Of a stretch of DNA of 64,000 nucleotides, positions 7,977-61,814 are shown in pieces; within the stretch, counting starts at the first letter, position 1; each line of letters begins with the position of its first letter. Under the pieces are notes generated by a model that was given only the letters and a program-made list of their open reading frames with translations, made no database searches and had not been told where the DNA came from. This DNA comes from an uncultured bacterium. GTDB taxonomy: Bacteria > Babelota > Babeliae > Babelales > Vermiphilaceae. The DNA is taken from contig OY970212.1 in assembly GCA_963713925.1 (NCBI GenBank), forward strand, positions 288,001-352,000. Reading direction: 5' to 3'. The translations under genes and the position numbers were made by a program.

Positions 7977-7980
7977 TAAG

Positions 7981-8588: not shown

Positions 8589-9284
8589 ATGATGAAATTT
8601 CAAGCAACTTTTTTTATTTTCTTGGTCTTTATCTTGTTTTGCGCCGGGTGTTCGAGCTACCGTGAATGCAAGAATAATTCTCATGAGGCATGTGATATGA
8701 AAAAAAAGAACGCACTCAAAGAATATAAAGAGCGACGCGATTTTACTAAAACTCCCGAACCAAAGCCACGCGTTTCCAAAAAATCGGGCAAAAATATTTT
8801 TGTCATTCAGCAACATCATGCAAGCCACATGCACTATGATTTTCGACTTGAAGTTGATGGAGTGCTCAAATCATGGGCGGTTCCAAAAGGGCCATCAACA
8901 GATCCGCGAGTGCAACGGCTAGCAACCGCAACCGAAGATCATCCAATGGAATATGCAACATTTGAAGGAATTATTCCCGAGGGTTATGGCGCGGGTACCG
9001 TAATTGTCTGGGACACCGGCACCTTTGATAACTTAACGGAAAAAAATGGCAAACCATTATCACTTTCACAAGCATTTGACCATGGGCATATCAAGATGAA
9101 CTTGCACGGCAAAAAGCTGAAAGGCATCTATACATTGAGTCGTTTTAAGGAACGCGACTGGTTGTTAAGAAAAGCAGATGATGAATATGCCGACGCGCGC
9201 AGCAATCCAGTCAGCACAAAACCAAAATCTGTATTAAGCGATAAGACAATCGAGAAACTGGATAAGAAGTATAAAAAGAAATAG
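8589..9284 (+). CDS. LigD 3'-phosphoesterase domain protein (alternative start 8697)
   Basis: Y..RRDFTKTPEP, FVIQQHHASHMHYDFRLE, LKSWAVPKGPS, TEDHPMEY, GYGAG.V.VWDTG, LHGKKLKG. Confidence 0.92.
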   Translation: MMKFQATFFIFLVFILFCAGCSSYRECKNNSHEACDMKKKNALKEYKERRDFTKTPEPKPRVSKKSGKNIFVIQQHHASHMHYDFRLEVDGVLKSWAVPKGPSTDPRVQRLATATEDHPMEYATFEGIIPEGYGAGTVIVWDTGTFDNLTEKNGKPLSLSQAFDHGHIKMNLHGKKLKGIYTLSRFKERDWLLRKADDEYADARSNPVSTKPKSVLSDKTIEKLDKKYKKK

Positions 9285-9372
9285 CCCTTTTTATTTCATC
9301 TCACGGGGGTCATCTATTGTGTTTTTCTATGCATTCAATATGATAAATGCAAAATTTTGTTTGCGGGGCGCG

Positions 9373-11058
9373 ATGAAAAAATTAGTGTTATTGAGTGCGG
9401 TATTTTTACAAACCAAAGCTGCTGATATTTCGGATCAATACAAGATAACGTTCAAAGATGGATCTTCAGGAGTTTATGCCAAGGCTCTATTACAAGATTT
9501 TGGTACCATAAAAGCTTTATGGAAAATATCTGAAGAAGAAGCACAATCAACTCAATTCAGTGCAATTGATAAAGATATTTTTGATTTGCTCTATGCATTT
9601 GACAAAATATTTTATGAAAAACCTGCTGTTGCGGTCGCTGAGACCCAGAGAACTATCGGTACCTATAGTTTTGAAAGAACAAAAAATCTTCTTTTGGCAG
9701 CGCATTTTCTTGATGTTTCTCAGAAAGTGACTTCATCTGTGATTTCCGGTTTCAATAAAAAAATGATCTCGCCCGAATTTTTACAAAAATTTGTAAGTGA
9801 TAGAAATGTTATTACAGGTTTAGGCCTTCCTACTGATTTGAAGGAAAGAGTAGCGGAGCACATGCAAAATGATTCTCAAATGAGTGAACTCTTTCTTACC
9901 GCTGTTACTCCAAAAACAAATATTACAAACCTCTCACCGAATGCTTTTTCAAGCTGTTGTTCATGGGACAGCAAATTATATGCTGTATTAAGTTATCCCT
10001 CTATAGATTTATATGAGCTTGAATCCGGTAATGTTATACGATCACTACAAGAAAACAAAGAAGAGGATCATAACCTTCCTGCCCCACTTGCATTCTCTCC
10101 AATTGAGGATTTGATTGCAAGTGGATCGCCTGATAACACGGTAAAATTATGGAATTATAAAACGGGAGAGCTGGTTAAAACTTTAACTGAATTTGCATCA
10201 CCGGTGAGCGCTCTTGCTTTTTCACCTATTCAAAGATCACTTACTACTGCATCTGATAACAAAATAGAAGTATGGAACCTGGAAACAGCTACGCAGACAC
10301 AAACATTCCCTCATTTTGATAATATAAAATTAGTTGTCTATTCAATTGATGGAAAAAAATTAATAAGCGCCTCTGACCGTGGCCAAATAGGTATTTGGGA
10401 TTTAGAAACTGGCAAATCGAATAAAACACAGCTCTGGCATAAACCCATAAACGGATTTTCAACCAAATCATTTGCAATTTCTCAAGACCGGTCGATAGTG
10501 GCAATGAGCGACAACGCGGAAGCACAAATTCTTAATATAAATACAAAAGACATTGTAAAAGTTAAGTTTGCTTCTCATAACACAATTTCTAGCGGAATTT
10601 TATCAATTGCGCTTTCATCCCAAGGAGCGGTGCTTGTAGGCTCAACGTACAACGGGGAAATAAAAATCTTTAATTCAACGACCGGAAAATTGATCAGAAT
10701 CCTTTCTGAATATAAAGAAGAAATCTTGAAAGATCGAATATTTGTGTCTCCGAATAATAAATTTTTTATTTCAGAGAACGATAGAGGCGACACTTTAATA
10801 AAATGGGATTTTAATGTCGAACAACTCTCTATAGAAGCATTACTTTTATTACATCTATCGTTAAACGATTCCCCTGAAGCTCAAAATAGTAAGACAATGG
10901 TTTCTCCTGATTTGATCAAACAGAGTCTTTCGCCTATTACACAACAACATGTGCACACAGATCTGGAATCCTACTTAACAAAAACACTCAAATTTAAAAC
11001 ATCTTTCTGGCCAAGCTTATTTAAAGTATTTGAAAAAATAACAACTCAAGGTGAGTAA
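9373..11058 (+). CDS. Secreted WD40-repeat protein with a Skp1/BTB-like N-terminus
   Basis: Signal peptide; LLLAAHFLDV resembles Skp1 LILAANYLDI; repeats such as LAFSP..IASGS.DNTVKLWN. Confidence 0.8.
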   Translation: MKKLVLLSAVFLQTKAADISDQYKITFKDGSSGVYAKALLQDFGTIKALWKISEEEAQSTQFSAIDKDIFDLLYAFDKIFYEKPAVAVAETQRTIGTYSFERTKNLLLAAHFLDVSQKVTSSVISGFNKKMISPEFLQKFVSDRNVITGLGLPTDLKERVAEHMQNDSQMSELFLTAVTPKTNITNLSPNAFSSCCSWDSKLYAVLSYPSIDLYELESGNVIRSLQENKEEDHNLPAPLAFSPIEDLIASGSPDNTVKLWNYKTGELVKTLTEFASPVSALAFSPIQRSLTTASDNKIEVWNLETATQTQTFPHFDNIKLVVYSIDGKKLISASDRGQIGIWDLETGKSNKTQLWHKPINGFSTKSFAISQDRSIVAMSDNAEAQILNINTKDIVKVKFASHNTISSGILSIALSSQGAVLVGSTYNGEIKIFNSTTGKLIRILSEYKEEILKDRIFVSPNNKFFISENDRGDTLIKWDFNVEQLSIEALLLLHLSLNDSPEAQNSKTMVSPDLIKQSLSPITQQHVHTDLESYLTKTLKFKTSFWPSLFKVFEKITTQGE

Positions 11059-11070
11059 TAAAAAACATTT

Positions 11071-11525
11071 TGCCCTTGTGCAGGGCGAGCACCAAAAAAT
11101 GTTTTGTCCCCTCCGCGGGGACCAGCGGCAAAAGCAGTCTCGCCACCGCTTTTGCAAAACGGGCGTTTAAGGCGCTGCCTTAAAAATCCGTCCTTCGTTT
11201 CAAACCTCGACACACACAATTTTTTCAAAATTATTTCGGTCTCGAGAAACTACCGGACTTCTTTTCTTTATGAATGCAAATACAATAATTCAAAGCAAAA
11301 TCACAATGCCTCAAGATCAACTGCAATGAAATAAAGAAGTCTGATGAGGTTCGCCGAGCCAATGAAGCGATGGTTATCGCATATGGTGAGTTGAACCTCA
11401 AGGAATTTTTAAAACCTTGGTTTTAAACGTGCGTATTCCAAAAGGGTTCACGAAAACCCTTTTGGCGCCGGTCCCCGCGCAGGGGACAAAACACCCTTCT
11501 GGCACATGCCTGCGCGGAGCAGGCC
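11071..11525 (+). mobile_element. MITE/REPIN-like structured repeat, copy 1
   Basis: Colinear with the reverse complement of 13695-14085; imperfect terminal inverted arms, each of three hairpins. Confidence 0.7.
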
Positions 11526-12745
11526 TAAACTTTAAACGCCACTTTTATCCACCCCGTACTCCTTTTATCAAACTCTTTATATGCATGCACAACTTGATCA
11601 AAGGGTAATATGTGAGAAATAAAGGGAACCAAATCGATCTCGCCTTTTTGCACCCATCGGAGCAATTCGGGAATATATTTTTTGTGGTTGCAATTACCCA
11701 TGGTGATAGTCAGATTTTTTTCCATTGCTTGGCCAATCGGGAAGGTCTCTAAAAGTTCGGTGTACACGCCAATAATTGACACAACGCCCCCTTTGGCAAC
11801 GGCTGCTGTTGCCCAGCGCAAGACTTGTGAAGGAGCATTGCCCGGGATCCAGTTTTTGCCCTGAGGATTTCTGTATGGTGCAACTTTTTTCACTTCTCTT
11901 GCAAACTCGCGCAATTCACGAATTTCGCTAAAGTTTTTGATGAGGCTGAAAAATCCATAGTCAGGGTGCACAGCATCGGTTCCGACGGCATCGATCACTT
12001 TATCGGGGCCAAAACCATCAGTTAATTTTTTCAATTCGGTAACGGGATCAACGGTATTAAAGTTTATGATATGCGCGCCTTGTTTTTCCGCTCTAGCCAA
12101 CCGATCTTCATACATATCAATTGCAAATATTTTTTTGATGCCCGCTTTTTTCAAACAAGCAATCACCAATTGTCCCACAGGTCCACAGCCAAAAACGGCA
12201 ACAGTGTCATTCGGATCGGGAAAAATGTTTTCAACAGCCATGTATGCAGTTGGCAAAATGTCTGAAAGCAAAATAACTTGTTCATCTTTTAATTCGTCGG
12301 GCACTTTGACGAGCGAAACATCCGCATAGGGAACGCGTACTTTTTCTGCCTGCATGCCATCAAACGATCCGGATGATAAGGGACCTCCGTAAAAAGCAGT
12401 TCCCCATTCGGGACCATTAGGGTTTGCCTTGTCGCATAACGCATACAACTCTTTTTTACAGTTCAGACAGTGCCCGCAGGCAATGGTGGAAGGAATAATA
12501 ACGCGATCTCCGACTTTGAAATTGTGCACATCGGAGCCTATTTGCTTGACAATGCCAACGCCTTCGTGGCCTAACACAGTTCCTTTTTCATAGAAAGGGA
12601 TAGTGCCACGAACAGCATGAAGATCGGTGCCACAAATGGCAGACATAGTGAGTTTGACGATTGCATCTGTTGGTTTTTGAATAACCGGGTCTTCCATTTC
12701 TTCCAACACAATTTTTCCCACACCATTCAAACGTAATGCTTTCAT
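11525..12745 (-). CDS. Zinc-dependent alcohol/formaldehyde dehydrogenase (FdhA-like MDR)
   Basis: ICGTDLH, GHEGVG, CGHC..C.....C, LSDILPT, GCGPVG, IDAVG. Confidence 0.9.
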   Translation of the reverse strand: MKALRLNGVGKIVLEEMEDPVIQKPTDAIVKLTMSAICGTDLHAVRGTIPFYEKGTVLGHEGVGIVKQIGSDVHNFKVGDRVIIPSTIACGHCLNCKKELYALCDKANPNGPEWGTAFYGGPLSSGSFDGMQAEKVRVPYADVSLVKVPDELKDEQVILLSDILPTAYMAVENIFPDPNDTVAVFGCGPVGQLVIACLKKAGIKKIFAIDMYEDRLARAEKQGAHIINFNTVDPVTELKKLTDGFGPDKVIDAVGTDAVHPDYGFFSLIKNFSEIRELREFAREVKKVAPYRNPQGKNWIPGNAPSQVLRWATAAVAKGGVVSIIGVYTELLETFPIGQAMEKNLTITMGNCNHKKYIPELLRWVQKGEIDLVPFISHILPFDQVVHAYKEFDKRSTGWIKVAFKV

Positions 12746-12766
12746 TATTGTTCCCCTTTGTCTTCC

Positions 12767-13594
12767 TTATTTTTTCCCACGCGCATAGGCAACTGGACGG
12801 CTCGTTGAACGCGGCTTTTTATGCAGACTTGCCCGTAAAGCTGTCGTCAAAGATGTTTCTTTTTGTTTTGCAGGTTTCTTGGCGGTTACTTTTTTGGCAG
12901 GCTTTTTGCCTTTCATCTTTTTTTGAGCTTTTAATGCGGCGGTTAACTTTTCTTTAAAGGTGTCTTTAAATTGAGTGAGATCGAATTTTTTTCGAGTGAG
13001 CTGCTTAATGAGCTGATCGGCAAGTTTCAATTCCTGCGCGCTCATTTTGGGTTTTTGCTTTTCGGGCAACACTTGTGCAATATCGTTAATTTCATATGAA
13101 TAATTCAATGTATTTAAAAGTAACCCATCTTGAAAAGGCAGTATTGCGCACACGTGTTCTTTTTCATGCATAACAAAACTTCCAATGGCAACCAGGCCAC
13201 TTTTGACCAGCGCTTGATGAAAGAGATAAAATTCTTTTTCATGGTTTTTGACAGGAGCGATGTAATAATGCCCGTCGATATAGATTGGTTGAAGTTCTGA
13301 TGCGGGAACAAATTGCTGCATATTTAAGTAGTTTGATTTTTCAGGCTTTAACTTTTTTAAGTTTTCTTGTGTCAAAATAAAATATGATCCGTCTGATTGC
13401 TTGAGTCCTTTAACGGTGTGAGCCCATGATACAATTTCATCGCAATGTGGACATCGACGCTCATACACAATAGGAGTGTGGCATTTATCATGCAAAAGAG
13501 TAAAACCAGGTGAATGTGGCTTGATTGCTGTATACAAATAAACGGGAATATTGACCAAACCAAAAGAAATAGATCCTGTCCAGACGGCTTTCAT
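12767..13594 (-). CDS. ku: Ku protein (bacterial NHEJ)
   Basis: MKAVWTGSISFGLVNIPV, YYIAP, F.D.F.E.L, Lys-rich tail, L..ALRASL. Confidence 0.95.
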   Translation of the reverse strand: MKAVWTGSISFGLVNIPVYLYTAIKPHSPGFTLLHDKCHTPIVYERRCPHCDEIVSWAHTVKGLKQSDGSYFILTQENLKKLKPEKSNYLNMQQFVPASELQPIYIDGHYYIAPVKNHEKEFYLFHQALVKSGLVAIGSFVMHEKEHVCAILPFQDGLLLNTLNYSYEINDIAQVLPEKQKPKMSAQELKLADQLIKQLTRKKFDLTQFKDTFKEKLTAALKAQKKMKGKKPAKKVTAKKPAKQKETSLTTALRASLHKKPRSTSRPVAYARGKK

Positions 13595-13694
13595 TGCGCC
13601 TCCATTACTGTAATTGTTTTGACATAGCAACTCCTTTATCGTTCATTGCATATATGCTAAACAGTCTATTCATGTAAGCACAAGAGAAGCGTAA

Positions 13695-28189: not shown

Positions 28190-28861
28190 TTAACTAGCTT
28201 TTGCTTTAGGAGCTTCTTTTTTCGGGGTGCTTGCTACTTTAGTTGGAGTTGCAGCGGGTGACTTTTTGTCCATAAGAGCAATGATGCTGTTGCTGCACTC
28301 TGATTGTGGAGAGCTATAGAGCACTTGGCCGGTCATTTTATCAATGATAACGTCGAGACCTTCAGCTTTTGCAACTTGGGTCGCACATTCACGCATTTCT
28401 TTTAGAATTCGTTCCGTGGCTTTTTGTTGAGCCATTTGGAAATCTTGCTGACATTCTTGTACGCGGGCTTCAAGGTCACGCTTGTCTTTAGCCAACCGTT
28501 TTGCTTCAGCCTGTGCTGCAGCTTCACTCATGGTTGTCTTTTTAGCTTCAAAGGCGCGGGCTTCTTGCTCGAGTTTTTGGCCTTTAGCGGTGATTTCTTC
28601 GGTCCAATTTTTGTTCATTTCTTGGAGCTTTTCTGCTTCAGCCAAGCCAAGCTTTGATTTTTGCATAATTTCAAAAGCATCAACATAACGAACCTTGAGA
28701 TCAAGATGCACATCAAGACCTGATTTTGCTAACGCTTCTGTTTTGCTCTCTAATTCTGTTTTGGTTTCTTTGCTTACCGTTTTTGCCCCTTGAGCTATGG
28801 TTTCAGCGGCTGCTGGCAAAAATGAAAACGCGGTTAAAAGAAGGATACTTAATTTTTTCAT
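28190..28861 (-). CDS. skp: OmpH/Skp periplasmic chaperone
   Basis: Signal peptide, RYVD...SKLG, long coiled coil, GLDVIID...VLY. Confidence 0.8.
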   Translation of the reverse strand: MKKLSILLLTAFSFLPAAAETIAQGAKTVSKETKTELESKTEALAKSGLDVHLDLKVRYVDAFEIMQKSKLGLAEAEKLQEMNKNWTEEITAKGQKLEQEARAFEAKKTTMSEAAAQAEAKRLAKDKRDLEARVQECQQDFQMAQQKATERILKEMRECATQVAKAEGLDVIIDKMTGQVLYSSPQSECSNSIIALMDKKSPAATPTKVASTPKKEAPKAKAS

Positions 28862-29024
28862 GAAAAAAAGCCTTTCAAATCAGTGTTCAAACTACTTATT
28901 TCACTCTAGCTCAATCGCTGAATTAGTCAACCGACCTGAAAAGAAAGAGAAGAAGGGGTGGTATATCGTCCGTGTCACAGTCGGGAGAAAAAATTCCCTA
29001 CAATCCCCGCTTACCCTATTATTT

Positions 29025-29300
29025 ACCCCATACTCACGTATGGGGACCCCGGGTTTTTATCCATTCACAAAGATGGGGGCCCCGAATTGCATGGGGGTTT
29101 TTATTGATGGCTCGCCTCGTTCCTCCCGGCTGCGCTCACAATACTCACCATAATGAACTCATCTTGAGAATTGCAAGCATCAGAAGATCAATAAACCTAA
29201 TCTACGCTATCCCTACGAGTGGGGTCCGGTTTCAGCCCATACTACATAAGCTTTTATCCAAATTTGCATTCGGGACCCAGGCTTCGTATGCGACCCTGGC
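29025..29300. repeat. Cluster of family A hairpins and degenerate family C fragments
   Basis: CCCCATACTCACGTATGGGGACCCC, GGGGGCCCCGAA, TTCGGGACCC, CTCACCATAATGAAC. Confidence 0.55.
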
Positions 29301-29441
29301 TAGCATAACTTTGCAAATGACAAATAAGTGAATTCAAAATTCTCTTGAGAGTTTTATACTCAGTTTGATATTATTTATTTGAAAAAGATTTTTTATAGTC
29401 CATCCAGTTTTTCAAGATGGGATTTTTAATGAGGAGTTTGT

Positions 29442-30158
29442 ATGAAGCGCATAGATATAAAAAGACTTATGCTAAGCCTTGTTATCATTACAGGAACTTA
29501 TCCATATATGGCAGGAATGGAAGATGATGCGGAAATTGCGGAAGATATGCCTAAAACACCCAAAAAGCCTGCCGAACCCGTATTGAAAAAAGAGCTGGCA
29601 AAGCCGATAATACGGCTCGTGGGGATTAATAATCAGACATCAAAAAAATTGGATATTATAGCAGGCGGCGAGACATTTAAGCTTGCCCCGAACAAAACGG
29701 AATCATTTGATATTCAATTTTTCCTTTCTCCAACAACCCCTGTATTAAAAATTCCTAATGCGGTTGTTAGAGCATATAAATCAAGTGGCCCGATTCGAAT
29801 CCGTTTGAGTGAAGAGACAGCTTCGGGCGATGCCCCTACAAAAGGTGACCGTTTCCTCATATCGGTGCCGTATTATCAAGTGAATCAAGCATACGGAACC
29901 GAATGGGCCAATGCGCGCATCATAGTAGAGGAACCATCCAATAGGGATATAGGAAAACGTTTACCGATTGTTCTTGCTTCTTGGGATAATGGCGGGAAAA
30001 ACATGCCTCTTGAACCGGGAAAACACCATAATCTTGCTCTGAATCTGACGATTGTCGAAAAGCCAACCTCTACAACAAATGAAGAGGGCAAACAAGTCAA
30101 GACAACCTTTATTGATTTAGAAAATGATGCGCTCGAAGTTGAGGTTGAGCAACAGTAA
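29442..30158 (+). CDS. Secreted hypothetical protein
   Basis: GAGGAG RBS; signal peptide followed by ME. Confidence 0.75.
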   Translation: MKRIDIKRLMLSLVIITGTYPYMAGMEDDAEIAEDMPKTPKKPAEPVLKKELAKPIIRLVGINNQTSKKLDIIAGGETFKLAPNKTESFDIQFFLSPTTPVLKIPNAVVRAYKSSGPIRIRLSEETASGDAPTKGDRFLISVPYYQVNQAYGTEWANARIIVEEPSNRDIGKRLPIVLASWDNGGKNMPLEPGKHHNLALNLTIVEKPTSTTNEEGKQVKTTFIDLENDALEVEVEQQ

Positions 30159-30182
30159 ACAGATTGTTTTACACAATTAAGA

Positions 30183-30216
30183 ATGCCTGGAGATAATGAC
30201 CTTTATCTCCAGGCAT
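30183..30216. terminator. Terminator between convergent genes
   Basis: ATGCCTGGAGATAA..TTATCTCCAGGCAT. Confidence 0.65.
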
Positions 30217-30237
30217 ATATTTTATAGATCAAAAATG

Positions 30238-30918
30238 TTATTCCATTGCGTTAGCTTTTTCTGTTTCAGACAATGCTTCGAGTTCTTTTAGCAAGGCTCT
30301 CCGCTCTTCTTCCGGGGTACTTACAGGAGTAGTAACAATTTTGATATCCAGTGTTTCGGTAGTCGTAGGCTTAACCGGAGGCAGTTGCTGATCGATTTGG
30401 TCTTTGATCTCTTGCTCATCAGTTGCACTAAAAGTTGCCGCGGCTTTAGATTCATCCGTGGGGGATTTTGTGCCTTGTTGAGCAGTTTTAGTTTCAGTCG
30501 TTTCTGGTATAAATTTTTCGGTAACTTCTTTTACTACTTCTCGCTCAGATGATGGAGTGGTTGCAGCTGGTTTACTCGTTTCTGTCACTTCAACAACGGG
30601 GGTTGTTGTTTGTTGTGCAGAAGTATCTAATTTTGAGAGCTCTGCTTGAATATTTTCTTTTACGTCTTTGACGGCGGACGTTACTTTTTCACCTACTTTA
30701 TTAACTTGATCTTGCACAACCTGTTTAACTTCATCTACTTTTTGTTGGACAGTCGTCGGAACAGATGACGAGCTAAAAATTTGTTTCGTTTTTTCAATAA
30801 CGCTTGAGACAAGCTCAGTTACTTGTTGCCACAATGAACTAAACCACGATTGATCATCTGCGCGCGATTGGGCGGCAGTTATAAGAAAAAATACAAAAAT
30901 AATCTGTTTGATTTTCAT
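30238..30918 (-). CDS. Secreted low-complexity (T/E/Q/K-rich) protein
   Basis: AGGAGGAG RBS; signal peptide. Confidence 0.75.
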   Translation of the reverse strand: MKIKQIIFVFFLITAAQSRADDQSWFSSLWQQVTELVSSVIEKTKQIFSSSSVPTTVQQKVDEVKQVVQDQVNKVGEKVTSAVKDVKENIQAELSKLDTSAQQTTTPVVEVTETSKPAATTPSSEREVVKEVTEKFIPETTETKTAQQGTKSPTDESKAAATFSATDEQEIKDQIDQQLPPVKPTTTETLDIKIVTTPVSTPEEERRALLKELEALSETEKANAME

Positions 30919-31075
30919 CGGAATCTCCTCCTTATTACACCCAAGCTCATGTTATTCGCTTGGGACCCGGGTTATCGGGGCTCCAGCACATTCAGCTGAG
31001 GGGTTTTATTTTCAGGGTATCATTTTTCATATACAAATTGCAATAATACCAATTGGACATTAACGGTTTATAAAC

Positions 31076-31200
31076 TTCCTTATTACCATGTCATCCTGAA
31101 TTTATTTCAGGATCCACTTAACCTGGGTATGGATGCTGAAACAAGTGCCTCTTGACAACCAACCACTTTTTTTAGTTATAAAGCTTAATTTTCGTACAAG
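31076..31200. repeat. Family D ~125 bp element, copy 1
   Basis: GTCATCCTGAATTTATTTCAGGATC..GGATGCTGAAACAAGT; homologous to the reverse complement of 53068-53188. Confidence 0.75.
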
Positions 31201-31224
31201 TTCTCAGCCTTAATGCCGGAAGTC

Positions 31225-31764
31225 CTAAACAGGAATGTTTTTGCTTGCGAGAGCAATGTGTGCTTCTTGGAGATCTTTGGAAAGTTTTTCATTCTCAGTT
31301 TTGAGCTGTTTAATTTCGGCAGTGAGGGATTCCGTTTTTGCGAGTGCCGATTGTAGGTTTTTTTCAGCGAGCTCTTGTGCATCGTATTTCTTTTTATTTT
31401 CTGCTTCAAGATTTTTTATGGTAAGCGCTTGGCGTTCAGCAATTGTTTTGAGTGATTTTTTATCGCGCTTGAGTTGATCCCATTCTGCTTTGCTTTTATC
31501 CAGCGGAAGTTGCTCTTGCAAAATCTGGCTATCTCGTTTGTGAATGCGTTGGAAAAGAGGAATCGCTTGTTTTCCAAATCCTTGTTGGACTAAGCCATTA
31601 ATTTGTTCCAACAAAGGAGCTCGGCCGGCAATCCATCCGGGAACGTCTTCTTTTTCCAATGTGGACAATTCATTATTGAGTTTGCTCCATTGTTGTGAAA
31701 TTGCGGCAGGACTGCCGCAGTGGATGGAAGTGTATAACATCGATAACAAAATAATACGCTTCAT
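31225..31764 (-). CDS. Secreted coiled-coil protein
   Basis: Signal peptide; heptad-rich C-terminus. Confidence 0.7.
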   Translation of the reverse strand: MKRIILLSMLYTSIHCGSPAAISQQWSKLNNELSTLEKEDVPGWIAGRAPLLEQINGLVQQGFGKQAIPLFQRIHKRDSQILQEQLPLDKSKAEWDQLKRDKKSLKTIAERQALTIKNLEAENKKKYDAQELAEKNLQSALAKTESLTAEIKQLKTENEKLSKDLQEAHIALASKNIPV

Positions 31765-31848
31765 GAGAAATTCCTTTTGTAAGAATGGGAAATCTTTTCC
31801 CCATAACGTACTTCAGGATGAAGGATATTTGAAAGAAACGCACAAAAA

Positions 31849-31877
31849 AAAGAATGCGCATTTAATGCGCATTCTTT
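31849..31877 (-). terminator. Rho-independent terminator
   Basis: AAAGAATGCGCAT..ATGCGCATTCTTT with an adjacent A-run. Confidence 0.65.
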
Positions 31878-31905
31878 GAAAACTGTTCGAGACAGATGTT
31901 TTTTA

Positions 31906-32511
31906 TCACTCTAAGTTATTGTTTATAACAGAACGTATGGCAGCTTGTCTTGCTTCCCATTCTTTTTTTTCTTCTCTATATTCCAAATATTTCTTCACGA
32001 TCAATGTCGTTATTGTGGTCCCCGTCGCTATCGCAATAGCAGTGGCTATTTTAGGATTTTCTTTTGCGAGCGCAACAACACTTTTTGCATATTCAGATGC
32101 TTTTTTGACAATAGTAGAGTTAATAGCTGATTCATATTGCTTTTGTGCAAACTCTTTTACTTGAGTAAATTTGTTACCCACTTCAAGACCCGTGATGCGA
32201 TCTTTTATTGCATCAAGCTTTGGTTGAGCATATTCAGAAGCATTTTTTGCTTGAGAAGAAACAAAAGTTGTTGTGACGTCCCACATGCGCGGCAACAAGT
32301 TCTTTGTTGCTTCCTGCGTAATCGCTGGAGCTGCAGGTTGTTCTTGAGTTACTTCTTGAGCAACATTGTTTGCAACTGCAGCTATTTCAGCTGCCAAGCG
32401 AGCAGATTCTGCTGCTTTTGCAACGATTGTTTGTCTCATATTGCCGCTGTTTTCAGATGCAAATGCAACTGAGCAGGCAGCGAACGATAAAAGGATTAAT
32501 TGTTTTTTCAT
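31906..32511 (-). CDS. Secreted protein with C-terminal membrane anchor
   Basis: MKKQLILLSFAACSVAFA signal; ENPKIATAIAIATG TM. Confidence 0.75.
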   Translation of the reverse strand: MKKQLILLSFAACSVAFASENSGNMRQTIVAKAAESARLAAEIAAVANNVAQEVTQEQPAAPAITQEATKNLLPRMWDVTTTFVSSQAKNASEYAQPKLDAIKDRITGLEVGNKFTQVKEFAQKQYESAINSTIVKKASEYAKSVVALAKENPKIATAIAIATGTTITTLIVKKYLEYREEKKEWEARQAAIRSVINNNLE

Positions 32512-32564
32512 AATAAACCTCATTATTTAGATCATTAAAATGACAATGGGAGCATGGATCTTTT

Positions 32565-32972
32565 TCAAGAATCTCTCCCTCCATATAGCTCATTTGAATA
32601 ACATGCGAGCGTTTCTTGTATTCGTTGTTGCTGCTCCTTTGCTACGGCATGGTTCACTCTTTGTTCAGCATATTTTTTAAATGTTCGTATGGCAGCCATT
32701 TGGACTTCATAGGTATGACCAGAGGTATAAGCACAAATGATTGCGTGTGAGTAGCACATAGAATGAAGTAATCGGACAGAGTTTTCGAAGAAGGGCTCAT
32801 TCTCTCTTTGGTATGTGTTATAGCAATTAATCATTGTTTGCACCAAAAGTGCGCATTGTTCGTCAAAACATTTCTTTTCTTGCAACACAAGTACGTTTTG
32901 TTGTTCATCACAGCCCTTTGCAAATGCAACTGAGCATGCAGCCAACGATAAAAGGATTAATTGTTTTTTCAT
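32565..32972 (-). CDS. Secreted hypothetical protein
   Basis: Signal peptide nearly identical to that of 31906-32511; C-terminus shared with the EEP protein. Confidence 0.7.
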   Translation of the reverse strand: MKKQLILLSLAACSVAFAKGCDEQQNVLVLQEKKCFDEQCALLVQTMINCYNTYQRENEPFFENSVRLLHSMCYSHAIICAYTSGHTYEVQMAAIRTFKKYAEQRVNHAVAKEQQQRIQETLACYSNELYGGRDS

Positions 32973-32993
32973 AATAAACCTCGCTTTAGAGAA

Positions 32994-33575
32994 TTAAAAT
33001 AATAACGAAAAGATAGATCTCTTTTTTAAAGCTTCGAAAATATTTCGTGACGATTCTACCAAGGCTTTTTTATTATTAGTGTCGTACGCAACAAGATATT
33101 CCCTGAGTTCTTCTTGTAGTGCATCATTAGAATCGATTTCTTTTGTTACATCTCTTAAGTGTTCATAATTTAGCTTTATCCCGTACAGTCTTCGAATTGT
33201 TTGCAAAAATTTTGGATTTTGAGCTTTTTGTCCCGATGAATTGCATTGATCCCAATCCATGTCAAAAGCCTTATTGAGCTGATTTTTTATGGATTGCTTT
33301 TTTACAAATACGAAGCCTGCAGCTGCGGCAAGGGCGGTTCCCGATGCGGCAATGTATGGATGGTTGAGAACTTGATTCCAGCCACCTTTTGCGGCATTCC
33401 AACTAGCTGTTGCGACTGTGTTAACCATTGAGCGCACAGGGATTTGTTTGCAATATTCAACGGCAGATGATAGGAACTCTTGAGCATGAGCCTTGAGCTC
33501 TTTGATTCCTGCCTGGGCAGGTATATTGGTGAGTAATAAGGATGCACCTATTACGTTTAATACTATTCTTTTCAT
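32994..33575 (-). CDS. Secreted protein with internal TM segment
   Basis: GGAGG RBS; signal peptide; NHPYIAASGTALAAAAG. Confidence 0.75.
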   Translation of the reverse strand: MKRIVLNVIGASLLLTNIPAQAGIKELKAHAQEFLSSAVEYCKQIPVRSMVNTVATASWNAAKGGWNQVLNHPYIAASGTALAAAAGFVFVKKQSIKNQLNKAFDMDWDQCNSSGQKAQNPKFLQTIRRLYGIKLNYEHLRDVTKEIDSNDALQEELREYLVAYDTNNKKALVESSRNIFEALKKRSIFSLLF

Positions 33576-33833
33576 AATTAACCTCCAAATCAGTTAAAAG
33601 ATAGGTATAAAATACCTGAACTAGGGTCCCATACGGAGCATGAGCGCAGTATGGGTATAAAAACAGGCTATTTTATACTCTGTTTCTACTTCTTATGATA
33701 CCTGATTGAGCGCCTTGAGCAAGGGCTCAATTGACAAATAGAAAACATTGGTAGGGGGTGGCAGGTAAGGGCTTAGATTGAGGTGTTAACGGATCTCACG
33801 CGCAGTTCTACAAAACATCGGGTATAAATAAAA

Positions 33834-33860
33834 ATGGCCCGAGGAATTTCCTCGGGCCAT
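33834..33860 (-). terminator. Rho-independent terminator
   Basis: ATGGCCCGAGGAA/TTCCTCGGGCCAT with adjacent A-run. Confidence 0.7.
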
Positions 33861-33882
33861 CAAATTCTATAAAACAGAAATC

Positions 33883-34278
33883 TTACTCAAGATCTTCGTT
33901 TTCATCGTTGCCAAGAACTGCGGCTTTAATTGCGTCCTTGTAGTAGACTGCTGTTGCAGCCGCTGCAGCAACAGTAAGAGTTGTAGCAGCTGAGATGTAA
34001 GGATGAGCTTTGAAGGTTTTGTTCCAGAATGAAACCGGAGCGGTAACAAAAACAGCGTTTGCTCCTTTAACAGCAGCTGACTTGGTCGCTTTAGCAAAAG
34101 TTGCAATAGCCGATGCCGGGGTTACAACTGTGGTGTTCCAAACAGTTGAGCCAGCTGACTTAAGGGTAGCAGCTACACGAGCAAGGCGTGAAGGAGTTGC
34201 TACTTTAACTTCAGCAGCGTTGTTTTGAGCAACAACTAACATTGCAGCAAATACAAAAGCATTCATATAACGGTTCAT
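33883..34278 (-). CDS. Ala-rich secreted protein with C-terminal anchor
   Basis: Signal peptide; AHPYISAATTLTVAAAAATAVYYK. Confidence 0.75.
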   Translation of the reverse strand: MNRYMNAFVFAAMLVVAQNNAAEVKVATPSRLARVAATLKSAGSTVWNTTVVTPASAIATFAKATKSAAVKGANAVFVTAPVSFWNKTFKAHPYISAATTLTVAAAAATAVYYKDAIKAAVLGNDENEDLE

Positions 34279-34306
34279 AAAATATCCTTATGAATATGAG
34301 TTTGGT

Positions 34307-34837
34307 TTAATTAACTTCGTTTACAGGTTTATTTTCAGCGACATCTTGAGAGTCTTCGTGCAACAACTTGTATGTTTGATACACACCGGCCGCAACAATA
34401 ACAATTGAGCTTGCGATTGCTATCGGTTTCAAATACGCGTCTTTCCATTGACCGAGTTTTTCAACAACATGATTTATTTTTTCAGAAGAAATCACGTTGG
34501 AGGTTGATTCAACAGCAGTGTTCTGTTCAGTGCTTACAACGGGTTCGATTTGTGTGGCTACCGTAACTTCAGCAATGGTATCGGTGATTACAGGAGTAAC
34601 AGTAGATGTTTGAACTTCTTTTTGCGTTTGCCCAAAAAATGGTGCAATACGATCTTTGGCGGATGTTAAAGCAGAAGCTAAGGTTTTTGTGATGCCGACA
34701 ACAAAAGCGCGCTCTTGTTGATTTGATGTTCTATTAACCGAATCAACAAATGGATTCAACTCCGGGTCAAAATCGGCGCCCTTAACATGTGTATTTGCAA
34801 TAATAGTCAATGTTGCTAGAAAAATTGTGGTTCTCAC
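34307..34837 (-). CDS. Secreted protein with C-terminal anchor
   Basis: AGGAG RBS, GTG start, signal peptide; LKPIAIASSIVIVAAGVYQTYK. Confidence 0.7.
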   Translation of the reverse strand: MRTTIFLATLTIIANTHVKGADFDPELNPFVDSVNRTSNQQERAFVVGITKTLASALTSAKDRIAPFFGQTQKEVQTSTVTPVITDTIAEVTVATQIEPVVSTEQNTAVESTSNVISSEKINHVVEKLGQWKDAYLKPIAIASSIVIVAAGVYQTYKLLHEDSQDVAENKPVNEVN

Positions 34838-34942
34838 AAAGCACTCCTAAAAAAGAAAAGATGTTGCAAACAGTAATCAGCTTAGTTTAAAATACCGTAT
34901 TTGTCAAAAAAAGAGCCTGGAAAGCGTCGTTTTTTATTCTTT

Positions 34943-35048
34943 GCACCTAAGCTCACTGCATTCCGCTGGGGACCCATTTTTTTACCCAAGCTCACGGCGC
35001 TGCACTTGGGGCCCAATTTGGGAGTCCCCCATTTTAAAATGGGGGTTA
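34943..35048. repeat. Cluster of three family A hairpins
   Basis: CCTAAGCTCAC..GCTGGGGACCC; CCCAAGCTCAC..CTTGGGGCCC; GTCCCCCATTTTAAAATGGGGG. Confidence 0.65.
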
Positions 35049-35049
35049 C

Positions 35050-35598
35050 TTATTCGTCTTGGCACTCATCGTCACAATCATCACAATCTTCTTCATCACA
35101 TTCAGATTGTGTAGCAGCATTATACTCTTCTTCCGCCGATAGGGCTCGGGCAACTTCCATAAGCAGGATCATAGGGGCAAACTTTTCCGCTGCCGCTTTG
35201 TCTTCCACTGCTGATTGCAGGTCTTCAATAGCTGCAAATTGATCAGCGCCTGTTTTAAACCAGCTGCCGGTGTTGAGGAGCTTGTTGAGCGCTTCCAAAA
35301 GAAGAGTGCCTTCCTTTACGAACGCTTTTTCATTATTTGAAACCTGAGCATGCACCATACGAGCGCCATGCTTTGTCAGGTTGCCGATGAGTTCGGTTTT
35401 GGTTGCCTCATCTATGCCATTTATTGTTGCCACTTGGTACACGATACCATTGATCGATTCTTGAAATGTTTCATGGATGCCCTCATTGGCAAACATAATG
35501 GGTAAATCGGGAATAGTGGCTTTATTTTTGAATTCTGTAATAACAGTAATGCATCCTTCTTTGAATGCATCGATCATCATTTTGCTTACTGCGTCCAT
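35050..35598 (-). CDS. Hypothetical protein with an acidic Cys-rich tail
   Basis: 182-aa ORF ending ECDEEDCDDCDDECQDE. Confidence 0.7.
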   Translation of the reverse strand: MDAVSKMMIDAFKEGCITVITEFKNKATIPDLPIMFANEGIHETFQESINGIVYQVATINGIDEATKTELIGNLTKHGARMVHAQVSNNEKAFVKEGTLLLEALNKLLNTGSWFKTGADQFAAIEDLQSAVEDKAAAEKFAPMILLMEVARALSAEEEYNAATQSECDEEDCDDCDDECQDE

Positions 35599-50141: not shown

Positions 50142-50459
50142 ATGAAATTACATTTTTTTGCAGTGCTTATTTTTGGGGGAGTTATCCAGGCTGCGGAAAA
50201 TGATGGACCGAAAATCACAATTCCAGATGGGCAAGTGAAGTTGTATAATCGTTGCGATGATAACAGCACGTTTACCATCAGTGGCAGGAAGAAGACTAAA
50301 TTCGTAAGAACAATAGAGACTAATACTGGTTCAGTGATCGTGAAGCTTGAATATCAATGCTATAGCCCATCTCAATATTTGATTCCGGCAACGGTCGGTG
50401 CGACTGTCGGATCGGCAATAACGCTTGCGGTAACGCAAAAAAATTGCGCCATTTTGTAA
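50142..50459 (+). CDS. Secreted protein with C-terminal TM and CaaX box (CAIL)
   Basis: Signal peptide; ends ..ATVGSAITLAVTQKNCAIL*. Confidence 0.7.
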   Translation: MKLHFFAVLIFGGVIQAAENDGPKITIPDGQVKLYNRCDDNSTFTISGRKKTKFVRTIETNTGSVIVKLEYQCYSPSQYLIPATVGATVGSAITLAVTQKNCAIL

Positions 50460-50484: not shown

Positions 50485-50946
50485 ATGAAAATATATATGC
50501 TTTTTACCGCCATCGTCTTCGGTGGAATAGTTCAAACAATGATTGGTGCAGATGCTCCTGCCGAAAAAGCTCAGAAATCGAGAAAAGAATCGGAAATTAC
50601 ATTTCATGCGCAAGCCGAGCAAAATGCGTGGAGTTTCACGAAAATGCAGTGGGAGAGTATTCTTAAGGTTTATGCTGTAGACAACGATGAATTTCCTCTC
50701 CATATTTTTACGGAGAAAGAGAAGCAAATGCTTGTGGTATACACGAAAAAGGGAGATGGACGTGTCATCCGTCGAGACATAAATTGCCTTGATCGCATTG
50801 CGAAAAAAACATATGTGCAATTGCCACAAATTCCATATGTTGAAGACCTCAGCCAAACACAATTGCTCTTAGGTGTGGCTGCTGTTAGCGCAACTGCCGG
50901 TTCGGTCGCAACTCTCGCTCTAACTAAAAAATGCACTATTTTATAG
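50485..50946 (+). CDS. Secreted protein with C-terminal TM and CaaX box (CTIL)
   Basis: Signal peptide; ends ..ATAGSVATLALTKKCTIL*. Confidence 0.7.
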   Translation: MKIYMLFTAIVFGGIVQTMIGADAPAEKAQKSRKESEITFHAQAEQNAWSFTKMQWESILKVYAVDNDEFPLHIFTEKEKQMLVVYTKKGDGRVIRRDINCLDRIAKKTYVQLPQIPYVEDLSQTQLLLGVAAVSATAGSVATLALTKKCTIL

Positions 50947-54108: not shown

Positions 54109-54789
54109 ATGAAGTATACGTTCGCAATAGCATTGAGTTTGATGTCATTTTCATCAGTATATGGGATGATGTCACGCCACATACAAGTAAGAAAAGACAC
54201 GCGTCAAAAGCAAACTCACAGAAACTTTTGTTCAAAGGTTGAGCAAAAAACAATGCTAAAAAATGGTTTGTTTCCATTTTACGATAGCTTCTTATCTGTA
54301 AAATATAAGATTGTTTGTAATCCGTTAAGTAATACTTATTTTGAACAAAAAACATCTGGTTCTTCTGTTACTTACTCATATCTCAGTCAATCAAAAGATC
54401 AGACACCAAATTCAAGTTTTACAAAAGTGAATCACCCAAGTAAAAATTTTATAGATCTCTCTAAATCGCTTAATCAAAGATTCAGAGAAATTATGTTTAC
54501 TGATGCTGCAATGTTTCTCCAACAATTGGGAGAAGCACGTTTTGGCAATGGTTTTTCTCGCGATAACATGACTGCATATGTGGAGTCTATGCCGATAGAA
54601 ATTCAAACACATTATAAACAATTATTAATAGATTTGGCTCATAAAAAACTAAAGGTGTGGAATGCAAGCATAAAAGTTGATACTGCTTTTGCAGATGTTG
54701 ATATTATAGAGAAAGGCGGTCATAATTCTCTATTTATAATTAAGGGGATTCGTACAGATATTTGTCTAGATACAAGTTGGAAATGGTAA
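54109..54789 (+). CDS. Secreted hypothetical protein
   Basis: AAGGA RBS; signal peptide followed by an Arg-rich segment. Confidence 0.7.
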   Translation: MKYTFAIALSLMSFSSVYGMMSRHIQVRKDTRQKQTHRNFCSKVEQKTMLKNGLFPFYDSFLSVKYKIVCNPLSNTYFEQKTSGSSVTYSYLSQSKDQTPNSSFTKVNHPSKNFIDLSKSLNQRFREIMFTDAAMFLQQLGEARFGNGFSRDNMTAYVESMPIEIQTHYKQLLIDLAHKKLKVWNASIKVDTAFADVDIIEKGGHNSLFIIKGIRTDICLDTSWKW

Positions 54790-59037: not shown

Positions 59038-59475
59038 TTATTTTCGTTTCTCCAATTTCCATTCATCAAATCTATCTGAAAGTAAAGAGCTGATATAGAA
59101 AGGAACGAAAAAAACTACTACTCCGCAGACAAAAACGCACGTTGCCGTATCATCGGCAGCTCGTTCTACGGTTTTTCCGAAACTATTATCCGTGAGACGC
59201 TTCATTTCTTGGTTATTGGCTGTAAGAGTTTTTTCCAAATTTTCGAGTTTTTTATGTAATTCATCACTTGTTTTTTGGCCTTCCATAGAAGACATTTGAG
59301 AAACTTTTTTACTTTCAGTTTCTATAAACCGTTTTTGAGTATTTTGGGCCCATTGCGCCGCGTACTTTGTTCCTGAGCGATTCATAGTGTGGCGCATAAG
59401 CATAGCATGCGATGAATTGGCTATTGTGAATCCGGAAAGAATGAGCACAAGGCTCATAAGGTTGTTGATCTTCAT
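59038..59475 (-). CDS. Secreted protein, tandem paralog 2 (presequence-like segment, coiled coil, TM)
   Basis: First ~50 aa nearly identical to those of 59543-59965. Confidence 0.72.
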   Translation of the reverse strand: MKINNLMSLVLILSGFTIANSSHAMLMRHTMNRSGTKYAAQWAQNTQKRFIETESKKVSQMSSMEGQKTSDELHKKLENLEKTLTANNQEMKRLTDNSFGKTVERAADDTATCVFVCGVVVFFVPFYISSLLSDRFDEWKLEKRK

Positions 59476-59499
59476 AATTTGTCCTTTTAGCAAGACATT

Positions 59500-59531
59500 A
59501 AAGAAAGGAGCGCATAAAGCTCCTTTCTTTT
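59500..59531 (-). terminator. Rho-independent terminator
   Basis: AAAGAAAGGAGC..GCTCCTTTCTTT. Confidence 0.65.
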
Positions 59532-59542
59532 GATTTATTTTT

Positions 59543-59965
59543 TTACTTAATCCAATCGAATTTAACAGCGGCTATTCCAACGCCACCGACGATCACTAAG
59601 CCCCCCGCGTAGCCTATCATGTAACTTTTCACCAGCCGTTCAGCATCAGATTTAGTCTTTTCAAAGGAGTCAACTTTCTTGAGTAAGGATTCCATATTTG
59701 TGTTACTTTTTTTCAACTCATTAGCTATGTTGTCTAAAGATGTCGCCATCCTTTCAGCATCATTAGAGTAGATAAATCTGGAGTCCATTTTGCCTTCCGC
59801 ATCGCGAGCGTATCTAAATCGCTTTTGAGTCTTTTGAGCTAATTGAGCAACATACTTTGTTCCCGAGCGATTTATAGTGTGGCGCATAAGCATAGCATGC
59901 GCTGAATTGGCCATCGTGAATCCGGAAATAATGAGTGCAAGGCTCATAAGGTTATTGATCTTCAT
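59543..59965 (-). CDS. Secreted protein, tandem paralog 1 (presequence-like segment, coiled coil, TM)
   Basis: AAAGGA RBS; signal peptide ending AHA; C-terminal TM. Confidence 0.72.
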   Translation of the reverse strand: MKINNLMSLALIISGFTMANSAHAMLMRHTINRSGTKYVAQLAQKTQKRFRYARDAEGKMDSRFIYSNDAERMATSLDNIANELKKSNTNMESLLKKVDSFEKTKSDAERLVKSYMIGYAGGLVIVGGVGIAAVKFDWIK

Positions 59966-60179: not shown

Positions 60180-61814
60180 ATGAAAAAATTATTAAGACGG
60201 TTGCTGGTGGCTGCACTTTTAGCCGTTTGCGGCATAGCGCAAGCCGGAAATTTTGCAACGGCACTTGGCAAGTGTGTGCCATTCAATCCTGATTGTGGGT
60301 GTGAGTGTGCGGCAACAAATAAAACTTTTTTTACCGTGCGCCCGCCGTATCAACTCAACTCTCCGGAATTTATAGCAAATTTTCACAGTGACAGGCTAGA
60401 GGCCGCAGGCAAGCCATGCCGCAATGGGACAGTGCAAGTGACCCTTTTTGGTGGACAGTCAACCAAAAAGAGTAATCTTGGACGTTATTTTGGTTTTGAT
60501 TGCAGTGAGCGTTTGTATATTAATGAATCAACGACTGCAAGCAATACCGACATATTGGCAGAACAATTGAATATTTACACGGTTGGAGGAGTGACTCCGG
60601 CGACATTGGTGCCGCCGTTTTCAAGCACGATCGATCTTGAGCCGAGCTATAGTTTTGGAGGGATTGGAATCACGTGGATGCAAGAGTTTGCGCAACGCGA
60701 AGACGGGCGCTCTTGGTGGGTTCTTGTTTCTACACCGCTTACCATTGTGTCAACTACAATGAATTTGTCAGAATGCATCACGCAAAATGGTGGAGGAGTG
60801 TCTCCGGAGACGCCAAATGCAGTTGCAAATGCGACTGAAGCATTTGCGCAATCAAGCTGGCGTTTTGGGCGCATTCAACAATGCACAAAAACAAAAACCG
60901 GACTTGGCGATGTGACGTTGCTTCTCGGATATGAAATTGTTCGACATGAAGCTGTGGGAGCTGACGGATATCTTGGTATTTTGATTCCCGCCGGAAACAA
61001 AGTGCGCGGTCGCCGTATCTTTGAACCGGTTGTCGGACATAACCATCACACCGGTTTGATTTTAGGTGGTTCGGCAGACATTTTGATGTGGGAATGTGAC
61101 AATAGCAGCCTTACATTGGTGCTTGATGGCCATAGCCAATATATGCTCGAAAACTGCGAAGTGCGTTCCTTTGATTTAAAAAACAAGCCATGGTCTCGCT
61201 ATATGCAGGTGTATGCAAATCAAGCGCAAGCGCAAGAGGCGTATGATCTGAGTTTGATAGTGCCCACGAACTTTGGGAGCTTAACTCTTGGCGAGCCGGG
61301 CATTAACATTTTCACGCAACCGCTGCGTGTGCACCCCGGGCTTATTTATGTAGACAACACCGCATTCGTTTATACGTGCAATTGCTGGCAAGCTGAGGTC
61401 GGCTACAACTTTTATGCGCGTCAACAAGAATGTGTTGAGTTAGCTCGCCCATGGCAGACTGGCGCAGCATTAAAATCGTTGTTGGGCGGTGGAGCAACTG
61501 ACGGAGTGCAGATTATTGGCAACGTGTTTAACAATAATAACGAAGTTCCCTTTATTAGTTTCCCAGCAGGACCTGCACCAATCCCGGGCGTTATTAATTA
61601 TGACACCAACCTCATTAAATCGGGCGATCTCGATTTAAATTCAGCAGCTCATCCGGGCATTATCAGTAACACATTCTATGGTTCAATTGCGCATAACAGA
61701 ACGGCGTGTGATCATCCGCATTGGTTTGCGCTTGGCGGCTCCTATGAATGGGCGACAACCAATACCGTTATGAATCGTTGGACTGTGTGGCTTAAGGGTG
61801 GAGTATCTTTCTAA
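60180..61814 (+). CDS. Cys-rich putative outer-membrane beta-barrel protein
   Basis: AGGAG RBS, signal peptide, alternating beta-strand pattern, C-terminal WLKGGVSF beta-signal. Confidence 0.65.
   Translation: MKKLLRRLLVAALLAVCGIAQAGNFATALGKCVPFNPDCGCECAATNKTFFTVRPPYQLNSPEFIANFHSDRLEAAGKPCRNGTVQVTLFGGQSTKKSNLGRYFGFDCSERLYINESTTASNTDILAEQLNIYTVGGVTPATLVPPFSSTIDLEPSYSFGGIGITWMQEFAQREDGRSWWVLVSTPLTIVSTTMNLSECITQNGGGVSPETPNAVANATEAFAQSSWRFGRIQQCTKTKTGLGDVTLLLGYEIVRHEAVGADGYLGILIPAGNKVRGRRIFEPVVGHNHHTGLILGGSADILMWECDNSSLTLVLDGHSQYMLENCEVRSFDLKNKPWSRYMQVYANQAQAQEAYDLSLIVPTNFGSLTLGEPGINIFTQPLRVHPGLIYVDNTAFVYTCNCWQAEVGYNFYARQQECVELARPWQTGAALKSLLGGGATDGVQIIGNVFNNNNEVPFISFPAGPAPIPGVINYDTNLIKSGDLDLNSAAHPGIISNTFYGSIAHNRTACDHPHWFALGGSYEWATTNTVMNRWTVWLKGGVSF

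Follow-up and report, generated by a model that had tools for sequence, protein, structure and literature searches.

The neighbouring genes A and B raise the question of why two bacterial proteins should begin with nearly the same sequence, made up of a predicted Sec signal peptide and a basic peptide that resembles a mitochondrial presequence, and then continue into different coiled coils and hydrophobic segments. The pair is located in the window, i.e. the whole stretch of 64,000 nucleotides that has been analysed (G000:C1:288001-352000), where G000 is the genome under study (1.32 Mb, 40.8% GC, single contig). The preliminary description of the window had proposed that the common start is a modular cassette that sends bacterial effectors to host mitochondria. 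Here, we have compared the pair with the rest of the genome and with related genomes; the comparison suggests that the 26 residues behind the signal peptide are probably a presequence that would act in a eukaryotic host cell, as part of a swappable Sec-plus-presequence cassette that has expanded in this lineage.

The gene pair and its shared leader

Genes A and B lie between hisS and an ORF for a 544-aa signal-peptide protein (Table 1); upstream of each ATG there is a ribosome-binding-like sequence (AAAGGA/AAGGA), and promoter and terminator matches around the pair are at chance level.

Table 1. Features of genes A and B and of a third gene with the same type of leader; positions are those of the window.
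Feature	Position	Strand	Remarks
Gene A	59038-59475	-	145 aa; leader as in B; coiled coil and hydrophobic segment differ from those of B
A, predicted Sec signal peptide	59404-59475	-	residues 1-24, end SHA; heuristic caller
A, 26-mer, predicted mitochondrial presequence	59326-59403	-	Met start, acid-free, basic, end KRF
A, predicted coiled coil	59194-59277	-	residues 67-94, heptad heuristic
A, hydrophobic segment, predicted membrane anchor	59080-59136	-	residues 114-132
12-pair terminator-like hairpin between B and A	59500-59530	.	scored on + strand; about one such expected by chance
Gene B	59543-59965	-	140 aa; signal peptide and presequence-like stretch, then coiled coil, with hydrophobic segment at the C-terminus
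B, predicted Sec signal peptide	59894-59965	-	residues 1-24, end AHA; heuristic caller
B, 26-mer, predicted mitochondrial presequence	59816-59893	-	Met start, acid-free, basic, end KRF
B, predicted coiled coil	59654-59737	-	residues 77-104, heptad heuristic; conserved in P0012
B, Gly-rich hydrophobic segment, predicted membrane anchor	59564-59620	-	residues 116-134
54109, third class member in window	54109-54789	+	226 aa; soluble cargo, no known family
54109, predicted signal peptide	54109-54165	+	heuristic caller
54109, leader	54166-54228	+	from M20, end RNF-CS

The layout that had been proposed for the pair is found in full. Both minus-strand ORFs start with a basic n-region, a hydrophobic core and small residues at -3 and -1 according to our own heuristic, with cleavage and export being predicted, and residues 22-24 read SHA in A and AHA in B; residues 25-50 agree letter by letter with the consensus given earlier, forming a Met-initiated stretch of 26 residues without Asp or Glu and with a net charge of +5 (A) or +6 (B). 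Heptads at residues 67-94 of A and 77-104 of B are followed in both proteins by a hydrophobic segment of 19 residues.

The similarity stops right after KRF, as had been noted: the DNA of A and B is 87% identical over 163 nt, and the ungapped identity per 30-nt block is 24-29 up to codon 50 and collapses to 7-13 from codon 51 onwards, the drop at the boundary itself being from 24 to 9. Past residue 50, the local alignment score is 36 against a shuffled 25.2 +/- 4.5 (p 0.028, within the coiled coil); as this likeness is marginal, the term "paralogs" that was first applied to the pair is valid for the leader and not clearly for the cargo. Within codons 25-50, A and B differ by 8 synonymous and 4 non-synonymous changes (pS 0.49, pN 0.06, pN/pS ~0.12), and this synonymous excess indicates that the peptide itself has been kept, beyond mere DNA; purifying selection acts on the 26-mer.

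Mitochondrial presequences are described in the consulted part of PMC7723863 as N-terminal stretches of 20-60 residues, rich in Arg and poor in acidic residues, with Arg at -2/-3 of the cleavage site, that form a charged amphiphilic helix. The 26-mer has this length and composition, and KRF supplies an Arg at -2/-3 that closes the acid-free run, cleavage there being predicted; acidic residues resume 3-6 positions past the Arg. The hydrophobic moments of the two leaders are 0.54 and 0.59 (z ~+0.9 vs shuffles). Their ends, KRF-IET and KRF-RYA, pass a loose Arg motif and fail the strict form of it, which requires Ser/Thr after the motif.

Homologs of the pair are scarce. Neither Pfam (curated cut-off) nor NCBIfam contains a match for A, B or 54109; the ESM Atlas has returned no usable match for B and no reliable family for 54109; 40 related genomes contain only weak coiled-coil matches to B; and a metagenome scan with the A/B alignment has left 0 of 265 pattern matches confirmed. 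One outside homolog of B, P0012, is found among 1.84 billion representatives. The AlphaFold2 model of B is of low confidence (pLDDT 50), helical at residues 37-59 and in the coiled-coil region. The leader of 54109 is similar to that of A/B and contains one Asp; a Tim44-like identity of its cargo, guessed by eye, is unsupported, the AlphaFold2 mean pLDDT being only 35.6.

Presequence-like leaders across the genome

Signal peptides have been called in 566 of the 1308 called genes of G000, by our own heuristic rather than SignalP. A mature N-terminus is considered presequence-like if R-x?-[FLY] occurs at mature positions 8-40 and is preceded by no more than one Asp/Glu, with a net charge of at least +3; this rule was drawn up after examples were already known. 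It is passed by 13 of the 68 proteins with a signal peptide followed by Met and by 10 of the 498 other signal-peptide proteins (p 1.6e-7), in agreement with the genome-wide class that the preliminary description had suspected; the corresponding counts are 50/742 for other N-termini and 178/4741 for internal Met windows. A count of 13 is attained in no whole-protein shuffle out of 1000 and in 3 of 1000 local ones (local mean 6.0). The strict rule, which A and B fail, is passed by 7/68 against 1/498.

Features that are not part of the rule also set these 13 proteins apart: all 13 start with M-[LIFM], compared with 10/39 (p 1.8e-6), seven have a hydrophobic segment, compared with 3/55 (p 1.6e-4), and 12 have a small residue at -3, compared with 25/55. 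Relative to secretome bodies, the class leaders contain 3.0 times as much Arg, 0.3 times as much Asp and 0.1 times as much Glu, which is partly an effect of selection; their hydrophobic moment is not above that of shuffles (Stouffer z 1.47), and a bias of Arg over Lys is not significant (p 0.078). The 13 members are not independent, since they include two related pairs, and a few of them (209109, 1116781) pass the rule yet look unconvincing.

Met is found at the blindly predicted +1 position in 33/566 signal-peptide proteins of G000 and in 188/966 from samples of 13 relatives, against an expectation of ~2%. In most relatives, this Met is usually followed by D/E/N/Q (65/93 in G017), and such M-D/E/N/Q mature starts resemble eukaryotic N-termini of NatB type. 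At G000:C1:1303680-1305208 (L019), a 50-aa ORF consists of a signal peptide and a Met leader only, and directly precedes an ORF of 403 aa whose product is a paralog of the gene 105896 cargo; the whole looks like a split class member. Gene 105896 itself has no homolog among 8000 candidates scored.

Leaders in related genomes

The unchanged rule has also been applied to arbitrary samples of 150-200 kb from 12 related genomes; the sample from a thirteenth, G017, is excluded from this count, its region having been picked from matches. Here, the rule is passed by 10/192 proteins with a signal peptide and Met, against 17/584 others (p 0.17, not significant), three of the ten being near-identical paralogs from G014, and the strict rule by 4/192 against 4/584 (p 0.11); nor is the association with M-[LIFM] repeated over the 13 samples (3/24 vs 16/261). 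The proposed enrichment of presequence-like mature N-termini thus stands in G000, by our own rule and against shuffles, and is absent from the arbitrary samples of relatives.

A profile search of 40 relatives has revealed clear leaders in six genomes (G011, G014, G017, G020, G024 and G028), with ends such as QKRFNST in G014, RSLSS in G028 and RSYSS in G017. A wider profile, run against 230 genomes, has produced 28 non-training matches that extend past the signal peptide, of which 21 have been evaluated, leaving out two already seen, one 40-aa frame and the four lowest-ranked. Seven of these 21 top matches (families f1, f6, f13 and f21) pass the unchanged rule, with ends such as RSFHT, RSFSS, RTLAT, RQYHS and RSFNA, and four of them the strict rule, while 14 fail; textbook leader ends are thus present in other genera and families. 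In the same 21 proteins, 5 of 12 R-x-[FLYI] motifs are followed by a small residue and Ser/Thr, compared with 3.2% in secretome bodies, a comparison that is partly circular, as the residue sets were chosen post hoc and the profile contained similar motifs. A leader-only profile has found little beyond its training rows in the 230 genomes. The profile built with the signal peptide matches 52 of the 230 genomes, often through the signal peptide and nothing else, so that this number is not to be equated with class members.

In G102, three tandem genes (L195:29-1722) each combine a signal peptide with an M-L leader, one encoding a J-domain protein, another a GNAT acetyltransferase that has a hydrophobic segment, and the remaining one a small membrane protein. 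We read the leader class, as predicted from these comparisons, as real and widespread yet sparse, and as expanded in G000. A separate arrangement in G014 (L105:761-7124) comprises three tandem, near-identical proteins of 700 aa whose signal peptide is followed by a basic leader that is very long and acid-free; the one that has been scanned matches no Pfam family.

Exchange of leaders and the nature of the cargo

The abrupt boundary between leader and cargo is not confined to A and B. In a second pair (598888/599286), 24-30 of 30 nt are identical per block up to codon 40 and the genes are unrelated beyond it; P0006 has its first 34 residues in common with gene 911090, with the leader end KRSFS and unrelated cargo; and P0012 retains the leader end RSGTKY..Q.AQ.TQKRF and the coiled coil of B, while its tail differs from that of B and is without a hydrophobic segment. 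These comparisons indicate that leaders and cargoes are being exchanged, and they bear out the proposal of a modular leader cassette.

Some cargoes can be recognised. Gene 787691 (G000:C1:787691-788911, L012) encodes a Lon-type AAA+ module, matching positions 276-572 of 795 of TIGR00763, in which Walker A/B are present and the KDGPS motif is absent; it is not a Lon protease in the sense of N-domain, AAA+ and Ser-Lys protease, as both the N-domain and the protease domain are lacking, and two full-length Lon genes occur elsewhere in G000. A protein of G024 (L123:7684-8868), from a second genus, is 32% identical to it and is organised in the same way, behind a basic M-F leader; no further clear example has been recognised among other short frames of Lon type (L190-L194). 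Two full-length Lon genes are found in most genomes of the group; in G040 there are eight Lon-like matches, of which several form one cluster. J-domains are found behind M-[LM] leaders in four genomes (G000, G029, G102 and G002), the class member of G000 being a weak match to DjlA. Lon and Hsp70/J systems operate in the mitochondrial matrix, and neither ATP nor Hsp70 is expected in the periplasm; the Lon and J-domain cargoes therefore fit a host organelle better than the bacterial envelope.

Six class members are small proteins with Gly/Ala-rich hydrophobic segments. Leader cargoes in the relatives include GNAT acetyltransferases, a 2-oxoadipate dioxygenase, a subtilase, ankyrin repeats and a YhcG nuclease domain, of which the ankyrin, YhcG and subtilase cargoes are neutral with respect to mitochondria. 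One class member (G000:C1:1131762-1132631, L015) contains QAMGH, by eye a degenerate M48 HExxH, without a Pfam match; a true M48 match lies behind a signal peptide and Met in G019 (L118).

Genomic context

G000 looks like a genome of Babelota/Dependentiae, and the one confirmed relative among the matches to its HisRS, 60% identical, is assigned to Candidatus Dependentiae. The genome contains two secretins, two GspE/PilB-type ATPases, pseudopilin-like genes and four ATP/ADP translocase frames; the secretin count agrees with the two gspD copies reported for TM6 genomes in the available text of PMC4776705. According to the accessible part of PMC6561590, Chromulinavorax destructans, a cultured member of Dependentiae, replicates wrapped in a host mitochondrion and has 44% signal-peptide proteins, and the candidate named there for mitochondrial remodelling in Dependentiae is a distant mitofilin-like gene.

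The leaders had also been placed within a wider system of organelle address labels on Sec-exported proteins, and this part of the proposal has weak support, from CaaX-like ends (6/566 signal-peptide proteins vs 2/742 others in G000; 11/966 vs 10/1684 in the relatives), whereas PTS1-like ends, checked alongside, are not enriched and KDEL ends are absent. Signal-peptide proteins with CaaX-like ends are found at 50142-50459 and 50485-50946 of the window and at 937680, 762576, 763316, 1153106 and 929694 of G000; the ends seen are CAIL, CTIL, CTVS, CSLM, CNTL, CTTM and CTII, with similar ones in relatives, and the mature N-termini seem for the most part to begin with A-D or A-E.

Several other observations concern the window. 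In a run of short signal-peptide ORFs (28190-35598), several encode a hydrophobic segment at the C-terminal end with basic residues behind it, and the C-termini of ORFs 31906, 33883 and 34307 resemble tail anchors. At 6963-13630, ORFs similar to an ATP-dependent ligase (6963), a LigD phosphoesterase (8568) and Ku (12767), recognised by eye, suggest non-homologous end joining in a reduced genome. A large signal-peptide protein without a Pfam match (60180-61814) has a Cys-rich N-terminus and a C-terminal Phe; together with the large signal-peptide proteins at G000 850125-865689, it resembles the secreted family of Cys-rich and beta-barrel proteins described in the consulted part of the Babela massiliensis report (PMC4378268).

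Interpretation of the leaders

At the level of sequence, the leader class and its cassette are supported, and we infer that mitochondrial targeting is the best explanation of the leaders; it is likely, as a prediction, that the bacterium addresses a set of its secreted proteins to host mitochondria. Following Sec export, signal peptidase I would cut at A-x-A and expose M-L-M-R as the new N-terminus, so that the protein resembles a host precursor that has just been synthesised. Exit from the periplasm would probably take place through the type II secretion system or vesicles, a step that is unexplained for cargo with a hydrophobic segment, which would first have to get through the inner membrane of the bacterium; import would then proceed by TOM/TIM23 of the host, with MPP cutting about two residues past the Arg of KRF. 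In the least supported steps of the scheme, the C-terminal segment would act as a stop-transfer sequence, so that A and B would be inserted in the inner membrane and their coiled coil would lie in the matrix, most likely as scaffolds or decoys for inner-membrane complexes, and they may help to reshape the mitochondrion or to keep ATP flowing to the ATP-importing bacterium.

The leader might alternatively be a translocation or sorting signal, either RxLR/PEXEL-like or a tag for type II secretion or vesicles, with its Arg-x-aromatic end cut by a bacterial or host protease unconnected with mitochondria, which we regard as quite unlikely. RxLR and PEXEL leaders consist of a signal peptide, a short spacer and an Arg motif, with a fixed RxL, then acidic residues, at a set distance. 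This common layout, the lack of significant amphiphilicity and the occurrence of the leader on diverse cargo, ankyrin repeats included, speak for such a signal; however, the leader varies in length and has no conserved core, a fixed motif of RxLR/PEXEL type has not been seen in the leader alignments, checked by eye, and the lack of acids over the run, a start with M-L/F and ends rich in Ser/Thr are more in line with presequences than with a fixed motif. Moreover, 55 of the 68 proteins with a signal peptide and Met in G000, and most of those in the sampled relatives, are without the leader, which is thus no general export signal. A compositional accident is, in our estimate, very unlikely: the signal-peptide region would have been duplicated recently together with a neutral basic linker, and the likeness to a presequence would be chance amplified by duplication. 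The arbitrary samples of the 12 relatives, with their lack of enrichment, the clear relatedness by descent of some members and the local shuffles, which average 6.0 against the 13 observed, speak for such an accident, but the pN/pS ratio within the 26-mer, the convergence of dissimilar leaders from several families on a common start and end, and the retention of one leader type by two Lon-type members that are only 32% identical argue against it.

It is also possible, albeit unlikely, that the proteins never leave the bacterium, either because the signal peptide and basic stretch remain uncleaved and anchor them, the basic part being kept inside, or because they are cleaved and held in the inner membrane by the C-terminal segment. 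In that case, A and B would be small proteins of the envelope, and the members with Lon and J-domain cargo would be DjlA-like membrane chaperone factors, as the weak DjlA match might suggest. According to the available part of PMC2638155, export can be blocked by positive charge that follows a signal peptide, and it has been proposed that a basic mature N-terminus hinders Gram-negative Sec export (Kajava et al., as cited, not confirmed, there). The hydrophobic segments of the class do not differ in hydrophobicity from those of other single-pass proteins, so that a reduced hydrophobicity, considered as a mitochondrial sign, is not seen; as the segments are no weaker, they could anchor the class proteins in the bacterial inner membrane, and passage across the outer membrane is putative. 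Retention in the envelope nevertheless leaves unexplained the +1 Met, the M-[LIFM] start of all 13 members, the Arg-x-aromatic-Ser/Thr ends and the swapping of leaders onto unrelated, lineage-specific cargo; furthermore, the signal peptides have canonical -3/-1 sites, and envelope proteins are usually conserved, whereas proteins of the A/B type are almost without homologs.

A broader scheme can be entertained, tentatively and at somewhat less than even confidence: an N-terminal mimicry code across the whole order of Babelota, combined with recombined leader cassettes, may have led to a dedicated mitochondrial proteome in some lineages. By cutting before Met, signal peptidase would let secreted proteins pass as new eukaryotic chains, with M-D/E/N/Q serving as the address for the cytosol, M-L/F/I/M-x-R presequences for mitochondria and CaaX for membranes; the mitochondrial proteome would comprise Lon-AAA and J-domain mimics, acetyltransferases and Gly-rich inner-membrane proteins. 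Such a proteome would explain mitochondrial capture of the Chromulinavorax type. In practical terms, the rule allows candidate mitochondrial effectors to be selected in any genome of the group, and these can be expressed without culturing the bacterium; the delivery logic itself would be unusual, in that plain Sec export would be followed by the unmasking of a host-style N-terminus, and the leader concerned moves from gene to gene. If mitochondrial targeting is true, the leader count per genome could indicate which uncultured lineages have a life close against mitochondria.

Comparison with known systems

The order presequence, coiled coil, C-terminal anchor, which is that of MCUR1/CCDC90 (PF07798), is equal to the order in mature A and B; PF07798 has no match in G000 and is not among the Pfam matches of A/B, which do not qualify as CCDC90/MCUR1 members. 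In the sections consulted of the reports on Chromulinavorax destructans (PMC6561590) and Babela massiliensis (PMC4378268), these Babelota resemble G000 in their many signal-peptide proteins, type II secretion, ATP/ADP translocases and lineage-specific DnaJ proteins, and neither a +1 Met nor presequence-like leaders are described there; the word "targeting" is absent from the main texts of both reports and of PMC4776705. The literature searched, mostly without subscription papers or supplements, contains no class that combines Sec, Met and a presequence in bacteria or in Babelota.

The known systems are compared here from the accessible portions of their reports. Bacterial effectors with a mitochondrial presequence include Ats-1 of Anaplasma, a type IV substrate with a cleavable N-terminal presequence (PMC2824752), and EspF of EPEC (PMC10269737); as predicted for A and B, they have an N-terminal presequence, receptor-dependent import into host mitochondria and cleavage there. 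In Ats-1, however, the presequence is the primary N-terminus of a single protein, whereas the tag of A/B lies behind a predicted Sec signal peptide and starts at a second Met. The possibly Tat-exported Rv1813c of M. tuberculosis, which reaches the mitochondrial intermembrane space (PMC10269737), is a bacterial signal-peptide protein that becomes mitochondrial after removal of the signal, as is predicted for the class; unlike the A/B leader, its targeting resides in a folded domain, the N-terminal region being dispensable and a presequence being absent.

A two-part leader is also known from fungal and oomycete effectors in which a signal peptide is followed by a mimicked transit peptide, a mimicry called rare in the consulted part of the LOCALIZER report (PMC5353544). 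These effectors share with A/B a secretion signal that comes first and an organelle peptide that is exposed by cleavage; they are eukaryotic and secreted through the ER, whereas G000 represents a bacterium with Sec and type II secretion, a +1 Met and ~13 such proteins in a single genome of 1.3 Mb. While Ats-1 and EspF are single proteins, the leader class presented here is predicted to be carried by a dozen or more unrelated cargoes; single presequence-bearing bacterial effectors were thus already known, and it is the Sec-coupled leader class that, within the literature searched, appears to be new.
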